From NCBI GenBank assembly GCA_032128375.1, contig JAQBGU010000126.1:1-40378 (forward strand): 40,378 nucleotides of DNA, read 5' to 3'. Numbering within the stretch: position 1 is the stretch's first letter; each line of letters begins with the position of its first letter. A program made the position numbers. The stretch is from Deltaproteobacteria bacterium (GTDB lineage Bacteria; Myxococcota_A; UBA9160; SMWR01). Shown piece by piece: positions 33,001 to 39,000 of the stretch.

Positions 33001-36000
33001 CGCACCTCGGACGGTGGGTACCGCACTGCTTTCGGTTCCGACCATGCGATGCACTGGCTGGGCCGCGTGGCCGGACGGTTCGCGCGTTGGCAGATGGGCC
33101 GGGTGCCGTCGACTGGATGATGGGAGCCGTAAGAGCGGAGACGTTCACGACCGGTTCTGCGAGAGCCCGGGGGTGCGATTCCCCCGGGCTACTCTCCTCG
33201 ACATCGCCGCCGACGGTCGAATCTTCTTCTCCGACGCCTCGATCTCTACGAGAGCCACAGAGCTACGATGCGCCCACCGAGATCGTCAGCGGCCGCGTCA
33301 CAAGCCGCTTGTTCAGCTACGGACCCGACGGCCCGGGGCCTGCGACTCGAGCACGATGGGCTGCACTTCGTCGCCGACCAGCGCGAACCTCATTCTGCAG
33401 GGGGCTGGCTTTCGATAGGACTCGGACGCTTCAGTCCCGGGATCGGTCGGCCCACTTCCAATGCCACCATGGTGAAAAACGAGTCGTCGATCGGAGGATT
33501 CATCGCGATGTCCTCGAATCGTGCCTCAGTCCGCGTCCCGCGCAGAGTATTTGTAACGACGATTCGAGAGGGAATGAGGTGCGCATCCAGCGAGATCAGG
33601 TCGGAACGGGGTGTCTCCAAGATCCGAAACGGTTCGGGCGAATCCGTTCGTTTGAAAAATTCCACCCTTAGCAACACGTCGTCGGTTGCGGCAATCAGAA
33701 AATCGACGTGGTCGTAGCCGGCCCCATCGACCGGTGACGCCTCAACGACGAACAGCGCCTCGTTGGCATCGACAACGTTGCGGGTCGATCGAATCTCATA
33801 GTCTTGTGCGCGCCGACGCTCGAAGTCCTCGAACCAAAGGTCCGAACCCATAAACGAGTCGGTGCGCTGGAAGCTCGACACTCGCCGAACGCGCTGCATC
33901 TCGGGAAGAAAAACGAAGTGATCGTCGGCTCGGTCGAGATGCTCCAGCATGAGAATCGTCGTGCCGCGCATCCACATCGGTTCGAGGAATCGTCCGTAGA
34001 CGTTTTGACGACCGCCGATTCGCTTCCGGGCGATCTCGACCCTTCGAATCAGCTCGTCTCCGCGCCGGTCGTAGATGTGAAGTGTGACGTTCATCAGAAG
34101 GTCGCAGTCGTACAGATTGTCGAAAGCACGGTCCAGAATCGTTTCGCCATGCATCGAACTCACCAGCCCGGACCCATCGTCGGCGGCCCCGAGCAGGGCA
34201 ATCGATAGGGCGACAATCAACAGGGCGTAACGGCTTTCCAACGGTTTCCCCCGATTCGCTCCGCTTCTCACTGCGTGAGCGGCACATGCAATACGAAACT
34301 GCTGCCCTCGCCAGGCGTCGATGTTACACAGATCTTCCAGCCCATACCCTCGGCGATCTCACGACTGATCGACAGCCCAATCCCCCGGCCTCCCGAACGG
34401 GACCGGGTCGTGTAGAACAGGTCGAATACTCGAGTGGTTTCGTCCAGAGTCATCCCGACTCCACTATCTCGAACCTCGAATGACAGCTCGCCACTCAACT
34501 CGGTCGCGTACACCCAGACGCTATCCTCTACGTCGCTCGCAGCGAGGGCATTCTCGACCAGGTTGGTGAGGATTCGAGCGAGCTTGTCCGAATGCTGCAT
34601 TCGAGGAAGTTCGGGCGCGGCACTGACGAGAACGCGGCCACCACCGGGATCGACTGCATCCACCACTCGGCCGATCACTTCGGTGACGGGGATCCCAATC
34701 CCAGGAGCGGGGTGGTGAGCCAGTTCGTCGACCATTCCGTACACGATTTCCAGTACGTGCTGCGACACAGCTTCGATCTTCGCGGCTTCTGCGCGCATCT
34801 GCTCGGGTTTCGAACTGGTGGCGATGATGCGTTCCGCGCGCCGCTCTATGACGCGCAGAGGGGTACCCAGATCGTGGGCGATACCGGTCACGAGCCGACC
34901 GAGAGCCGACCGTTCGGCAGCCGACGCTTGCTGTTCGGCCGCACGGGCGTTTCTGACAGCAGATGCGGTGTGTACGGCGGCCTTGCATGCAAACTCGATT
35001 TCTTCGCTCGAGAAGGCACGACCGGAATCCGGCGACCCAATCAGGATGATCCCCATGGGCTCGTCTCCGTCGTCGATCGAGATGAGAAGTTCGACTTCGG
35101 CGTTGCGGAGAGCAACGGCATCTGGTGAATCCGGCGCATCCCCTCGTGCGAGATGCAGGAACTTCCGATCGCCCAATAGCTCGATAGCGAATGATGCATA
35201 CTGGAGTCGAAACGCGGGACTCGCGAGCCCTGCGTAGGCGGGACAGCAATCGCCGTCACGAATGAGAAAGACCGCAACTCCAGTCGACTCGAGTCCCGCT
35301 TCGAGCGTTTGACCCACGAGCGTTGCGCTGACCACCTCTGATGAGAGATCGGCCTTCCTGACCTCCTGCACTCTCAATAGTTCCCGCCGTTTTCTCGCGC
35401 CGGGCGCGAGCGTATCGGTCACAACCGGTGAAAGTCTTCGATGGATCGACTCGGAGATCGCGAAACCCAAGGCTCCCGACAGTACCCAGAGCGAGACACC
35501 GCCAATCCCAACCATCGCATGGAAAGTCGTGATTGCTGTCGCAGTGATCGCTCCCGCAACACCGACACGTACAACCCCATCGAGAATCGACCTGGCGTTC
35601 GCGGCCAGGTCGAATAGCTCGTACCGCGTGGTCGCGTATCCGAACGGCACTGCGAACAGGCCAAGGCCTGAGAGAAGCGGAACCATTGAACCGCCAGCTA
35701 GAGACTCCCCCCAGCCGAAGTGGATCGCGCCAAAGATCAGCGGAACTCCCGCCGACCCGACGAGCAAGAGACGGGCTCGTGTACGCTCCAGTGCCGACCT
35801 CGTCTCATTTGCGGCCCTCACGGCATTGATCCACAACACGAGCGCGCCACACCACGTGAATGCGAGCTGAAATTGAACGACGAGGGTCCACAGGCTCGGC
35901 TCTCCTCTCAAGCCACGAACACCCGCGAATGCGAGAAGTACTGCGAATCCATAGGGGACCAAAACCACACCGGGCGCTTCGCGCGTAACGCTGCCTCGTC

Positions 36001-39000
36001 TCGGAAACGTCAAAGCCAGATGCCCCAACGTCGCTGGAATCAAAGGGGCCGTGGCAACACCAATCCATGCCAGAAAGGGGCTCTCGAAGTGGCATAGGAT
36101 GGCAATGAGCTGCACACCAGTGACGGAAAAGAGGAGTAACAGCGGCGTAGAGGCTCGTGCGGTTGCGCTCGAGTACACGCGAATTCCGAACGCCAATACG
36201 ACGGAGACGATGCACCCCGCCAGCAGGATTCCCAGCAGGCGCGAGCCGGGCGCCGCCGCAGAGGTAGGTACATCGATCGACCTCCGAACACCATCTCGCT
36301 CGACACTGAGTCGCACTCTGCCTTGGCTGCTCTCGATGGCTTGCGAGTACGGCCGATCACGCGAGAACGAAACAAGCCTTCCATCCGCCTCCACTCCCAG
36401 CACCTGATCGAGGGGTCGGAGCGGACAATCGTGGGATGACCCGACGATGAGCGGGATCACTCCGTTTGGCATGACTCGACAGGCCAGGCGTGTTTCGGGG
36501 TCATTTGGGGAGAGCCAAGGAGCTGCAGCCAGAACGAATGCAGTCAGGAGGGGAAGGACGAGGGCGACCAGCTGGACTCGTCGCCGCGACTCCGATGTAT
36601 GCTCCTCAACCCCCGGTGGCCCATCCGGAGCCTTGCCTTGCGACGATCCGGTCACGACGAAAATGATGGCGGGCAGCACCCAGAGATCCGCAACCAATGC
36701 GCCAAAGATCGCCACTCCTGCCAAGAACCCGAAACTCGCGATGCTCTGCCAGGAAGAGAACAGAAGCATGAAGAAGCCGAGAGTCAGGGCAACCGAGGTG
36801 GTGACGATTGCGCGACCGACGTGACGAACCGCGCCTTCGATTGCTTCCGCGCCTTCGGAGCCATCCCTTCTTCGTCGGTGAAATTCGGCGATCAGATGGA
36901 TGGCGTCGTCGACGGCGAGGCCCAACACGATTGCTGCAACCATCGCGGTTCCGACGTCGAGGTTGATGCCAGCGAAACCCATCACGCCCAGCGTCACCAC
37001 GACCGGAAGCAGTGTCGGGAACATCCCGACCAGGGCCCATCCGAACGACGCACCCACACTGAGACCAATCCAACGAATGAACAGGACAAGGATTCCGAGG
37101 ATCACCACAGCAGCGGTCGCGAAACTCGATAGCTGGGTTTGCTGGATCTCGGTCACCATGTCGCGATAAACGGCATAAGGGCCAGTAAGTGTGACCGCGA
37201 CAGACGAACGGAGACCGCTGGCCAGAATGCCATCCACTGCGCTCAGTATCCTGGCGCGCTCGCTCTTTGGCCGTTTTTCCGCCTCGACCGACACCCTCAG
37301 ACGGCTCAGTGTGGGGCTGATCCATTTTTCGAGGGCACCGGGGTCGCGTAGTGAGAGGAGCGTGAGGAGGTTGCTATTGAGACCGTCGGTATCGGGCAGC
37401 CGTTCGAATTCCGGCTTGTCGTCGTGCAACAAGCGATTGGTCCGTTTCAGCATGCTCACAACGCTGTGAACGGGACCCAGCCCGTCGATTGCGCTGAGCG
37501 ACATCTCGAGTTGCTCGACCTCGTGCAACAAGCCTGCGTCGTTCGCGAGTGTGCCGACCGGCAAGGCGAGTTCGATCTCGAGAGTATCAGGCTTCTGCAG
37601 GTGGGATTCGACGAAGCGGTATCCCTTGACTATCTCGCTCTGTTCTCCGAGTAGCTTGTATTCGTCAACATCGACATCCAAACGGAAGACACCCAACACA
37701 CAGACCAATCCCAGAGCAATCGCCCCAATCAAGATTGGCACCGCCCGTCGGCGGGTGGCGGCGACCAAGGACGCCAATCCCATTTCCCAGCGTTCCGAAC
37801 TCTGGGCGGCTCGTGGACGCTCGGCAGGCAACAGGATCATCAGGATGGGTAGGACGGTAAAACTCAGGAGCAGGGCTACGACCATTCCGAATGCCGCAAC
37901 CGTGCCGAACCGTACGAAGCTCTCGAGACTTGACGTAGTAAACGAGATGAATCCAACAGCCGTCGTCAGCGAAGTAACGAGACACGCCGGTCCCACTCTC
38001 CGGGCTGCGAGCAAGAAGGCTTCCGGTCGGACGGAGACCCCCCTGACTCGATGTTTTGCGTACTCGGCCAAGATGTGGACCGAGTCGCTGAGCGCAATGA
38101 CCAGAATCAGCGGGGGAAGTGTCTCGGTAAGAGCATTGGTCGGCCACCCAAGAGCCGCCTGAAAGCCCATGGTCGAGCCTGTCGATAGCCCGACGGTTGC
38201 GAGAGAGGCGGCCACCATTTGCCAGGATCGGAACAGCACGAACACAACGACGGCGATCAGCGCGATCATCAATGGAATGAGCCGCTGAGAGTCGGCTGCT
38301 AGTTCCGCATCGGTCTGCGCGAGCTGCGCGGGTTGACCAACGATGTAGAATTGGAATCCCAACGCGCGAAACGGCTCCAGTGCGCCTTCGAGCGCCGACA
38401 GTACGCCCGTCGCCGTATCACTGTGTGACGAAGACAATTCGAGGACGATCGCGCCCACAAGGCCGTCCGGGGAAACAAGAAGGCCCCGCCACAGGGGATC
38501 GGCGACAGCGCGGGCCGCCAGAGCCGCGATGTCGGACGCCGGTTGTTTACCATCGTAGAGCGTGCGTCCACCGAAGGAATCCCCTTCGGACACCCATAAT
38601 TGTGTCGTCGCGGGACTCTCGATCCGGATGATGTCGGAACGACTGCTGAGATCGCGCACCACCGAGTGCGCCATTGCTAGAGACGAGGAATCGAAGACCG
38701 TCTCACATGCAGCGCTCTGTTCACAGCTCCACGTGGCAATGATTGGCAGGCCACCACCGAAATCATCGATGAACTGATCCAAACGAATGACCGTGGGGTG
38801 CTCATTGCCGAGATACGCCCGATAACCCGTTTCGGCTCGCAGTGTCGGAATTCGCGAAGCAAGAAGAGCCACTCCCAACACGAGCACCAGCAGGACGACC
38901 ATGGGGTGAGCGAGTGCGATTCGGGTGAGTCGATCCAACCGGTCTACTCCGACCGCTCGCCTTCGCGCCGAACGGGAACGAGCTTGTGACGACGAAAGCG

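Follow-up and report, generated by a model that had tools for sequence, protein, structure and literature searches.

An RND transporter fused to a sensor histidine kinase, encoded between response-regulator and LolA-like genes in an uncultured marine-sediment bacterium

Introduction

How should a gene be read that joins a membrane pump and a sensor kinase in one frame? Such a gene occurs in the window analyzed here, the whole 40,378-nucleotide stretch of DNA from an uncultured marine-sediment bacterium. The survey's finding had treated it as a new class of sensor-kinase input, in which an RND protein with sterol-sensing domains (SSDs) reports its cargo to a phosphorelay. We combined domain, structure, neighborhood, and tree analyses of the fused protein and its relatives to examine what each half contributes.

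Results

The locus comprises the following features:

34268..38938, minus strand: entire fusion gene encoding 1556 aa (start codon TTG at 38938, stop codon 34268-34270)
36653..38938, minus strand: RND transporter half, residues 1-762 (Pfam, TIGR00921, HpnN structures, hydropathy)
36578..36652, minus strand: cytoplasmic linker, residues 763-787 (column conservation 0.29 versus 0.54-0.63 in the RND half)
36521..36577, minus strand: TM13, residues 788-806 (hydropathy, AF2)
36239..36520, minus strand: predicted periplasmic PDZ-like domain, residues 807-900 (AF2, hhalign, Foldseek)
35444..36238, minus strand: membrane bundle of ~7 (possibly 8) TM helices, residues 901-1165 (hydropathy, AF2)
34934..35443, minus strand: cytoplasmic GAF domain, residues ~1166-1335 (Pfam in the family, AF2 fold)
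34271..34933, minus strand: kinase core, DHp ~1336-1410 and ATP-binding ~1411-1556 (HATPase_c, PDB sequence matches)
33390..34271, minus strand: LolA-like periplasmic protein, 293 aa (Pfam LolA_like 1.7e-32, gene coordinates)
38944..40209, minus strand: response regulator with REC, degenerate AAA+, and Fis-type HTH domains (421 aa, Met at 40209)
40229..40268, minus strand: 11-bp inverted repeat CTCCTGAGAAA/TTTCTCAGGAG, 20-60 nt upstream of the regulator start

The single frame claimed by the survey was borne out: translation from TTG 38938 is stop-free, and in 3/3 run-level assemblies (from one study, possibly the source samples) the entire open reading frame lies in one contig without indels. 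A GGAG stands 9-12 nt 5' of this TTG, and the preceding regulator gene has its stop 5 nt ahead of it. The database copy of the protein is 1544 aa long and starts at the ATG of residue 13; we favor the TTG because alignments with homologues begin at query residue 1-5. Fused kin comprise 45 further protein clusters at E<=1e-150 (40 of them 1471-1584 aa), superseding an earlier count of 33 homologues. Among 193 genomes of the order, 15 full-length matches were found in 14 other genomes, in line with the ~15 noted before; they were not all free of stops, as one contains an in-frame TAG and one ends at query residue 1493. G046, G107, G027, G101, and G102 again showed RND and kinase matches side by side as separate genes. 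The fusion is thus genuine and conserved, and it forms an operon-like trio with the response regulator and the LolA-like gene; no description of an RND-histidine kinase fusion was found in the literature searched.

Hydropathy resolved TM1, TM2-7, TM8-12, one extra TM helix, a ~95-aa loop bearing Cys820/Cys838, and 7-8 further TM segments, consistent with a 12 + 1 + 7 topology in which the PDZ-like domain is periplasmic and the GAF and kinase domains are cytoplasmic. Twelve TM helices and a pair of periplasmic domains (residues 26-219 and 419-602) make up the RND half, in which Cys72/Cys78 are invariant. The Pfam search reproduced the reported matches to MMPL (two, 4.2e-36), Sterol-sensing (two, 1.1e-14), Patched (7.6e-11), and HATPase_c. 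The HAE3 model TIGR00921 matched at 1.2e-53, under its cut-off, and the HpnN structures 6wu0/5khn matched as well, with D285 and D677 aligning with the Asp of the HpnN GVDF motif. These residues lie in the TM4 motif ALSDSVH (D285, H288) and the TM10 motif GLAVDDAIH (D677, D678, H681). The proton-relay residues, a check that the survey had left open, are kept in the fused representatives (D677 23/23, D678 22/23, H681 23/23, H288 23/23, D285 17/23), which favors an active pump. Because these acidic residues are conserved, the HAE3/HpnN-like RND half probably still transports. It is also the best-conserved part of the chain (column conservation 0.54-0.63 versus 0.37-0.51 in the kinase half) and appears to be under selection as a pump. 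Among close RND relatives, 11/20 further loci lack any kinase, five proteins are single-chain RND+LolA_like fusions, and 5 clusters carry a C-terminal cyclic-nucleotide-binding domain.

The linker that follows is rich in Pro, Arg, Glu, Gly, and Ser, varies from 15 to 28 aa across 23 fused representatives, and is unconserved in sequence; its 25 residues here are predicted to be loose and flexible. TM13, which corresponds to the first TM helix of free-standing kinase-family members, returns the chain to the periplasm. After this helix the survey had described a small beta domain with two invariant Cys. The Cys820/Cys838 pair is indeed unvarying across sets of 57 and of 23 sequences, and the AF2 model gives residues 807-900 a small alpha/beta fold. 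Comparison with the PDZ_2 domains of the same genome supported a PDZ relationship (hhalign probability 91%, E 9.8e-7, 59 columns), Foldseek gave weak matches to the PDZ domains of CtpA, DegP, and S2P, and Atlas look-alikes carry PDZ families; Pfam PDZ matched 0/57 kinase-family proteins at E<=1. We therefore describe this domain as probably PDZ-like and disulfide-bearing. The membrane bundle (AF2 pLDDT 80-86) has no Pfam family in the window protein and no Pfam 7-TM family in 57 members (E<=1). All 50 of the 50 VIA-align matches listed were 7-TM receptor-type folds, the best of which (Z 11.9, rmsd 5.1, 246 aligned) lies below the tool's ~13 caution mark for helical bundles.

On the cytoplasmic side, GAF and GAF_3 matches are weak in the fused protein (E 0.1); across the kinase family, GAF_3 was found in 40/57 members and GAF in 27/57 (best 1.8e-9), and the GAF+kinase part of PrsK TIGR02916 matched the fused protein at 1.8e-24, under cut-off. 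The kinase core has the H-box HDLGTPL (His1355), an N box, G1 (DxGxG), and G2 (GxGxGL), a HATPase_c match (1450-1555, 5.5e-23), a weak HisKA match (E 0.011), and PDB sequence matches over 1328-1556 to ZraS, DivL, and KdpD. In the 23 fused representatives, H1355 is kept in 22, and N1463, D1491/G1493/G1495, and G1517/G1519/G1521 each in at least 22; catalytic motifs are intact in both pump and kinase halves. The extra TM helix, ~7-helix bundle, GAF-like fold, and full DHp+HATPase described by the survey were all recovered by hydropathy, AF2, Pfam, or motifs.

The kinase half constitutes a self-contained family of sensor kinases, built from a PDZ-like domain, ~7 TM helices, GAF, and kinase. It is free-standing, usually at ~785 aa, in 71/96 representatives, and 9/15 unfused kinase loci have no adjoining RND gene within the fetched flanks; in eight of these nine the regulator and kinase genes are immediate neighbors, and three hold only kinase and LolA-like genes. 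The pump is therefore not simply the kinase's input domain, contrary to the earlier proposal. The PDZ-like Cys pair is equally invariant in fused and free-standing forms, which argues that attachment of a pump does not alter how the sensor works. In a tree of 109 kinase halves, no fewer than 6-7 changes are required to account for the fused state, and the nearest sister group of the window clade is free-standing and RND-less. Separate adjacent RND and kinase genes occur at L021 and L027-L031, mostly ordered RR-RND-kinase-LolA-like (an arrangement from which we infer that pump and kinase do work together), and three of these pairs overlap by 4 nt (L027, L028, L031). Four further RR-RND-kinase loci are L058, L064, L068, and L070.

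The flanking regulator had been called a sigma54 response regulator cut by the contig end. With its Met at 40209 it is probably complete in the window, and it matches Response_reg, Sigma54_activ_2, and AAA_lid_14. In alignment, however, 13/13 regulators of the window type lack the ~24-residue GAFTGA segment and the Walker B DE and have R/H where the Walker A Lys is expected, whereas all three elements are retained in five genuine activators encoded at the same loci. It is thus predicted not to be a working sigma54 activator. The inverted repeat upstream is possibly an operator or hairpin; in 22 other loci the DNA 5' of the regulator gene lacks it. On the other side, the LolA-like gene begins within the end of the kinase reading frame, with an overlap of 4 nt, and a LolA-like match lies immediately 3' of the fused gene in 13/15 fused loci. 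Its product has a signal peptide; the LolA-like assignment stands, but the protein is not the lipoprotein proposed earlier, since the lipobox Cys is missing in 11/11 aligned sequences. Beyond these core genes, neighbors differ from locus to locus. The reported association with type III polyketide synthases (3/5 fused loci) was seen again at a wider count of 4/15 fused loci read, plus 3 related loci, and for this subset a type III polyketide lipid is the probable cargo.

Discussion

We propose that an active HAE3/HpnN-type exporter is tethered to a sensor kinase of separate family, a reading in which our confidence is evenly balanced. The RND half would use protons to export a hydrophobic envelope compound and pass it to the co-transcribed periplasmic LolA-like carrier. 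The fusion would keep the membrane sensor of the kinase in contact with the pump, so that the kinase could signal how the pump is operating, or the cargo or lipid load there, as transporter-dependent kinases do. Phosphotransfer from the kinase would go to the adjacent NtrC-like regulator, and this regulator may set transcription of the operon and probably of other envelope genes. Precedents for lipid or hydrophobe export are described for HpnN and AmeD (PMC6394551). The link between pump and kinase rests on the 45 fused clusters, the repeated changes on the kinase tree, and the adjacent split pairs; that between pump and LolA-like protein rests on the 13/15 fused loci, the five RND+LolA_like fusions, and the RND and LolA-like pair proposed for lipid export in an aryl-polyene cluster (PMC8253772). 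The free-standing kinases with their equally invariant Cys pair, the RND-less sister group, the kinase-less RND loci, the varying neighbors outside the core genes, and the flexible linker, which offers no rigid coupling comparable to the STAC domain of CbrA, count against it.

Several of these observations would suit an envelope sensor that detects a signal of its own in the periplasm or membrane, such as the state of the bilayer or, like other periplasmic PDZ domains, the exposed C-termini of mislocalised envelope proteins, with pump and carrier only as regulated output; fusion would then provide equal dosage and co-localisation and pass no information. The prevalence of free-standing members, the nine RND-less loci (three with kinase and LolA-like genes only), the complete and equally conserved sensor module, its PDZ relationship, and the unconserved linker all fit this reading. 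Co-regulation alone, however, seldom drives repeated fusion of two large membrane proteins, and here the state changed at least 6-7 times and 45 clusters retain the fusion. Both pump and kinase are also expected to be dimers, suiting a physical complex, and HpnN reportedly crystallised as one. We regard this alternative as possible but rather unlikely. Control may also run the other way, with the 7-TM/GAF/kinase part gating export allosterically on a cytoplasmic GAF ligand; the GAF domain and the cNMP-type domains of related RNDs, which show that the clade accepts cytoplasmic regulatory modules, speak for it. Yet the conserved kinase core, phospho-acceptor His, and cognate regulator indicate a transcriptional output, and the two directions are not mutually exclusive; as the explanation of the fusion it seems very improbable.

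The least probable reading is the survey's own, a Patched/SCAP/NPC1-like receptor reporting sterol or steroid; we find the sterol link unsupported. The reading draws on Pfam (Sterol-sensing at 55 bits against a cut-off of 22.3, and Patched SSD), on weak sequence similarity to NPC1 and Dispatched, on the gene at 29132-30178 for an FA_hydroxylase ('sterol desaturase' superfamily), and on the HpnN-like RND BstA, implicated in bacterial sterol transport (PMC10942540). Calling the host steroid-degrading depends here on four hits of the KshA_C type (Rieske oxygenases) in other parts of the genome. However, PF12349/PF02460 are also listed in precomputed Pfam for RND-only, LolA-fused, and cNMP-fused relatives and are thus generic to the RND clade. 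No squalene/oxidosqualene cyclase model matched in the genome (91% complete); the oxidosqualene model also picks up hopene-type cyclases in control genomes. The conserved neighborhood held a steroid gene in 0/30 loci, with type III polyketide synthases instead beside four fused and three related loci. A full second sensor, moreover, sits between RND and kinase core, and the relatives are uncultured Myxococcota.

Compared with known systems, the fused protein recombines familiar parts. BceS with BceAB and DcuS with DctA are kinases that read the activity or occupancy of an unfused partner transporter, with minimal sensor domains that rely wholly on it. The split RR-RND-kinase loci would work in such a way, but the kinases of the present family bring their own large sensor and often lack a neighboring pump. 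The 7TMR-DISM proteins, a 7-TM receptor kinase family, and HisKA_7TM share the order of extracytoplasmic domain, seven TM helices, and kinase; the 57 members here differ in having no Pfam 7-TM or PDZ match (E<=1) and a periplasmic domain that is PDZ-like with a disulfide. The Amt domain of Ks-Amt5 is said to be a sensor rather than a transporter. That protein, described as a histidine kinase with a fused Amt ammonium transporter domain (PMC5764959), likewise joins a transporter fold to a kinase, but its transporter family is another, and here the pump's proton-relay residues are conserved. CbrA/CrbS (Pseudomonas, Vibrio) are described as SLC5-STAC-histidine kinase transceptors, with transport-derived conformational signals proposed for CbrA to reach the kinase (PMC13022988; PMC7096432). 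They share a whole secondary transporter and histidine kinase in one polypeptide with an NtrC-family regulator as partner. In those accounts, however, the CbrA transporter is an SLC5 uptake protein of 13 TM helices, not an RND, and a rigid STAC leads to PAS/DHp with no second membrane sensor, in contrast to the loose linker, PDZ-like domain, and 7-TM sensor found here; sequence kinship is confined to the kinase core.

HpnN and other HAE3 proteins (AmeD, ApeM, BstA) are likewise MMPL-type RNDs with 12 TM helices, of which TM2-6 and TM8-12 are SSD-like; the Asp of TM4 and of TM10 here aligns with that of the HpnN GVDF motif. The fused protein also shares with the systems described a periplasmic chaperone-like partner (ApeL/ApeM, AmeB/C/AmeD; PMC8253772, PMC6394551, PMC10942540). 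These known members have no kinase, and the fused protein scores only 40-48 bits against HpnN chains, with TIGR00921 and HpnN models far under cut-offs. Patched, SCAP, and NPC1 share the SSD-type RND membrane fold, a likeness of architecture only, and LYCHOS (GPR155) is described as a transporter domain joined to a 7-TM receptor domain (10.1101/2024.09.24.614577); all are eukaryotic, sterol-linked, and kinase-less, unlike the protein of this genome with its lack of a cyclase-model match. Because the transporter-kinase fusions CbrA and Ks-Amt5 are known, the locus is not a new class of principle, contrary to the survey's proposal of a new class of sensor-kinase input; what is new among such 'transceptor' fusions is the pairing with an RND protein. 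The fusion suggests that the cell monitors its own envelope-lipid export.

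Results

The fused protein of 1556 aa is encoded by a single open frame on the minus strand of the window, running from TTG 38938 to the stop codon at 34268–34270. Its surroundings comprise the following features.

40229–40268: inverted repeat, 11-bp perfect (CTCCTGAGAAA ... TTTCTCAGGAG), 20–60 nt upstream of the regulator start
38944–40209, minus strand: regulator with REC, AAA+ domain and Fis-type HTH
34268–38938, minus strand: fused gene, RND pump half followed by sensor-kinase half
33390–34271, minus strand: LolA-like gene, Pfam LolA_like (PF17131) at 113 bits (cut-off 30)
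32162–32716, plus strand: PNPOx-like gene, downstream of the LolA-like gene
31223–32179, minus strand: PCMT-like methyltransferase gene, downstream of the LolA-like gene
29132–30178, minus strand: FA_hydroxylase-family gene, downstream of the LolA-like gene and 4 kb from the fused gene

A GGAG lies 9–12 nt upstream of TTG 38938, and the regulator gene's stop codon is 5 nt ahead of it. Because alignments of homologues from other genomes begin at residues 1–5, this TTG is a better start than the ATG of residue 13, where the 1544-aa database copy begins. The whole ORF was contained in a single contig in 3/3 public DNA runs from one marine-sediment study (0–3 substitutions, no indel, depth 15–21), which rules out an assembly chimera; these runs may be the source samples of the window and would then lend no independent support. 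No RNA data were listed among the sequencing runs found for the locus.

The protein is arranged as follows, with residue numbers counted from the TTG start.

Residues 1–762: RND pump half, 12 TM helices and two periplasmic domains (hydropathy)
25 residues, following the pump half: linker rich in Pro/Arg/Glu/Gly/Ser, 15–28 aa and unconserved across fused forms
Directly after the linker: TM13, the thirteenth TM helix of the fused protein
~95 residues, following TM13: periplasmic domain with invariant Cys820/Cys838
After the periplasmic domain: membrane bundle of ~seven TM helices (hydropathy)
C-terminal: GAF domain, then HisKA-type core (HDLGTPL with His1355; N, G1 and G2 boxes)

Pump half

The Pfam matches reported in the survey's finding (two MMPL, two Sterol-sensing, Patched SSD and HATPase_c) were reproduced. 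MMPL exceeded its cut-off in both halves of the RND (125 bits vs 20.5, two stretches), and hydropathy gave 12 TM helices with large periplasmic loops after TM1 and TM7, as in the MMPL/HAE3 branch of the RND superfamily. Among solved structures HpnN chains match the pump half best, and among curated models those for the HAE3 subfamily and HpnN come closest. The model scores all fell far under their cut-offs (TIGR00921, TIGR03480 and NF052374 at 182, 124.5 and 77 bits vs 351.9, 751.85 and 1100); by sequence, the pump half is thus kin to HAE3/HpnN without being a member as curated. Going by the cited passages, the nearest pumps are HpnN, AmeD, ApeM with ApeL, and BstA (PMC6394551, PMC8253772, PMC10942540).

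Within the fused protein, conservation is highest in the RND half. Charged proton-relay residues, left unchecked in the survey, are present in TM4 (D285/H288, ALSDSVH) and TM10 (D677/D678/H681, GLAVDDAIH), and in the alignments the Asp of the HpnN GVDF motif is the counterpart of both D285 and D677. Among 23 fused representatives, D677, H681 and H288 are conserved in 23/23, D678 in 22/23 and D285 in 17/23, and the periplasmic pair Cys72/Cys78 is invariant. We take this conservation as a sign of selection for an active proton-driven pump.

Kinase half

HATPase_c scored 82 bits in the fused protein (cut-off 26.4), whereas HisKA stayed under its cut-off (16.2 vs 26.9) and GAF was likewise weak. 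The assignment as a HisKA-type kinase relies on the H-box His1355, located in a two-helix DHp in the AF2 model, together with conserved N, G1 and G2 boxes; PDB kinase matches cover residues 1328–1556. Membership of PrsK (TIGR02916) was rejected (86 bits vs 300, the match being limited to the GAF and kinase part, 1280–1553). AlphaFold models built from family alignments reached pLDDT 86 for residues 771–1556, and pLDDT 80 with pTM 0.80 for the sensor (771–1190).

The periplasmic domain appears PDZ-like. Its profile matched PDZ_2 domains found elsewhere in this genome (91% probability in hhalign, E 9.8e-7, 59 columns), its language-model (Atlas) look-alikes carry PDZ families, and Foldseek listed the PDZ domains of CtpA, DegP and S2P protease for the sensor model, weakly (E 0.14–0.2) and with nothing at E≤0.001. 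No Pfam PDZ or 7-TM family matched any of 57 family members at E≤1, and Foldseek on the whole kinase-half model returned kinase cores only. The helical bundle superposed on 7-TM receptor folds alone (50/50 matches listed), the best at Z 11.9, rmsd 5.1 and 246 residues; as this Z lies under the tool's caution mark for helical bundles, we call the bundle receptor-like in topology and nothing more. The count of 12 + 1 + 7 helices is self-consistent, placing the PDZ-like domain outside and the GAF and kinase domains inside.

Residues 771–1556 were searched against 1.84 billion representatives, yielding 109 proteins at E≤1e-30. Of 154 proteins examined, 96 cover both membrane sensor and kinase: 25 are preceded by RND sequence (22 full length and 3 fragments), and the other 71, of ~780 aa, are free-standing, start with a helix equal to TM13 and retain the Cys pair. 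The kinase half is therefore a family of its own. It defines an undescribed kind of sensor, a disulfide-bearing PDZ-like domain with 7 TM helices and GAF, with about a hundred representatives at 50% identity.

Distribution and history of the fusion

A whole-protein query against 5.8 billion proteins returned 62 clusters at E≤1e-20. Forty-five of them belong to the fused family, 40 of these being 1471–1584 aa long. The other matches included relatives of the pump half in single-chain fusions of two kinds, five RND+LolA_like (LolA_like/DUF1329: P0349, P0352, P0355, P0357 and P0360, ~1035–1061 aa) and five RND+cyclic-nucleotide-binding (P0351, P0353, P0356, P0358 and P0362, ~904–927 aa, one 1218 aa). 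Two 953-aa clusters of the fused family (P0322, P0323) were excluded as full fusions after pairwise alignment revealed an internal deletion: ~600 residues are missing between the PDZ-like domain and the G1 box, the phospho-acceptor His among them. They comprise 2 and 11 member sequences, so the deletion is not one single assembly error. Where relatives carry a name, it is that of a "Myxococcota bacterium" or "Deltaproteobacteria bacterium" MAG; two of these genomes come from the window's own family.

In a set of 193 genomes from the order, matches to the fusion over its full length numbered 15, spread over 14 genomes other than the window's own; one carries an in-frame TAG (genome G090), one ends at query residue 1493 and several more are cut by contig ends. 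The TAG (locus L040, G090:C37) is the only one in that gene and sits between the pump and kinase segments; a recent split, a pseudogene or an error of sequencing could each account for it.

We compared the neighbourhoods of 30 loci around kinase matches and 20 further loci around close RND relatives, using tblastn coordinates where these differed from ORF calls in GC-rich loci (e.g. L029, L030, L020). Half of the kinase loci (15/30) were fused or interrupted, 14 as one ORF and one (G090) broken by the TAG. A LolA-like match directly followed the fused gene in 13/15, and a full-length regulator match directly preceded it in 9/15. RND and kinase were neighbouring separate frames in six loci (L021, L027–L031), overlapping by 4 nt in L027, L028 and L031. 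The remaining nine had no RND gene within the fetched flanks, and in eight of these the regulator and kinase genes are immediately adjacent, leaving no room for one; three of the nine combine kinase and LolA-like genes without a pump. The RND-relative loci comprised four regulator-RND-kinase, two kinase-LolA-PKS-RND, two regulator-RND with no kinase seen and one RND+PKS arrangement, and 11/20 had an RND gene with none of the regulator, kinase, LolA-like or PKS partners. At L059 (G016:C21), the RND gene comes directly after a regulator of the window's degenerate type (see below), and the 6 kb downstream of it contain no kinase match; this pump has the regulator but lacks the sensor.

In a FastTree phylogeny of 109 kinase halves, the fused state required at least 6–7 changes, compared with ~31 under shuffled labels. 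The window's clade holds seven fused proteins, and its sister group consists of pump-less kinases. Fused, split, pump-less and kinase-less loci together indicate that the two modules are separable on both sides, and such repeated joining and parting is the usual signature of proteins working together.

A related-locus search of genome contigs matched one distant RND only. The window's genome has a second locus, on contig C71 (L047), where an 802-aa RND (8001–10409) is followed by a degenerate-type regulator (412 aa, 10470–11708) and a second RND frame (11719–13614) that runs past the contig end. The order mirrors RND-regulator-fused gene-LolA in the same-genus genome G072 (L045), and the organism probably has two such systems.

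Regulator, carrier and neighbouring genes

The regulator was considered as an NtrC-type sigma54 enhancer-binding protein and rejected. We aligned 13 regulators of its type (the window's and 12 from L020–L045) with five true sigma54 activators from these loci. Three features, namely the GAFTGA segment of ~24 residues, the Walker A Lys (R/H instead) and the Walker B Asp-Glu, are missing from 13/13 and present in 5/5, and the Sigma54_activat match of the window's regulator is limited to model positions 2–59. Judged by these residues, it is unable to activate sigma54 polymerase by the known route. It is puzzling in its own right that the partner regulators have lost every feature required for sigma54 activation. 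In 9/30 loci the fetched flanks include a true sigma54 activator that lacks REC, in most cases right after the LolA-like gene; none occurs in the window. The degenerate regulators may work via sigma70 promoters, or mix with or block the true activator.

The sigma54 promoter consensus, TGGCAC-N5-TTGC, had 34 matches at ≤2 mismatches vs 39 expected by chance, and the 169 nt preceding the regulator gene contained none. The inverted repeat at 40229–40268 was dismissed as a family operator, being absent upstream of the regulator in 22 other loci. The regulator frame runs to the contig end and had been described as cut there; family alignment puts the start at Met 40209, so the gene is probably whole.

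The LolA-like gene, whose start overlaps the kinase stop by 4 nt, had been called a lipoprotein gene. It has a signal peptide, but a lipobox Cys appears in 0/11 aligned N-termini. A complex prediction of its product with sensor residues 778–1190 scored 0.00, which bears neither way. Beyond the core genes, neighbours are not constant among loci. Two loci (L037, L038) have a PNPOx homologue (56–60% identity) ~6 kb from the fused gene. At L020 (G007:C4), a 3007-codon open frame (8180–17203, plus strand) begins within the kinase gene and is out of frame with it; just downstream of that kinase there is probably the start of a very large gene.

Cargo

Type III polyketide synthase genes stand beside 7/50 loci, namely 4/15 fused loci, all of one clade, and 3/20 RND loci (L034:5745–6842, L036:12803–13903, L046:12119–13249, L033:2542–3612; also L060, L066 and L071), with none in the window. 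A methyltransferase lies near the synthase gene in L036. For this linked subset, the synthases point to a phenolic lipid as cargo.

The survey had proposed a sterol. PF12349 (Sterol-sensing) does exceed its cut-off in the fused protein (55 bits vs 22.3), but the match is common to kinase-less RND relatives and so marks the fold of the RND clade, not a ligand. The oxidosqualene cyclase model had no match at E≤0.001 in the 91%-complete genome, while related cyclases were found in two control genomes. Four KshA_C-type matches elsewhere in the genome and the nearby FA_hydroxylase-family gene are not specific. We found no basis for naming sterol as the ligand, nor for regarding the organism as an established steroid degrader. 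A sterol-receptor reading of the RND half is a minor alternative.

Discussion

In the reading we favour, held with about even confidence, an active lipid or hydrophobe exporter is tethered to a PDZ-7TM-GAF kinase that reports pump state or local cargo load. The RND exporter would pass its cargo to the LolA-like carrier, the fusion would hold the complete kinase against the pump, and the kinase would adjust transcription through the degenerate NtrC-like regulator. Repeated fusion and tight operon packing favour this reading, as do the RND-LolA_like fusions, which show a tendency in this pump clade towards fusion with functional partners. The main rival, which we consider less likely, is an autonomous sensor, in which the kinase senses alone and pump and carrier are merely co-regulated output. 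It gains from a kinase family that is mostly pump-less and from the floppy linker. Reverse control, with the C-terminal half gating the pump, is a minor alternative. A reading in which the fused 7-TM receptor-like kinase follows the RND working cycle directly, via helix–helix contact in the membrane, is tentative.

The transporter-kinase principle is established, in the cited portions of the sources, by CbrA/CrbS (SLC5-STAC-kinase) and Ks-Amt5 (Amt-kinase) (PMC13022988, PMC7096432, PMC5764959), CbrA being described there as a rare transceptor (PMC13022988). A CbrA-type transceptor, with SLC5 and STAC before the kinase, was rejected since neither match is found in the fused protein; the two share the principle but not the family. 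Full-text searches, in a library that does not extend to subscription journals, found no paper describing the fusion of a histidine kinase to an RND or MMPL domain. We file the protein as the first RND-type member of the transporter-kinase fusions; a second sensor, itself unusual, separates its pump from its kinase core, and the PDZ-7TM kinase family to which that half belongs is undescribed.

Fusions of transporters to kinases are described as rare, SLC5 and Amt being the only examples studied, and an RND example would carry the principle over to the pumps responsible for building and defending the Gram-negative envelope. Fused, split and pump-less forms within one bacterial order offer built-in comparisons for asking whether the kinase can read pump activity. 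If coupling is not real, the locus is still a clean example of fusion following co-function with no information passed; if it is real, it bears on signalling by SSD-type membrane domains. Should the kinase indeed read the pump cycle, the protein would be the first transceptor of the RND class and would meter the flux of envelope-lipid export. It would also offer a simple bacterial setting in which to ask how RND proteins of the SSD type (Patched, SCAP, NPC1) convert cargo handling into signal.
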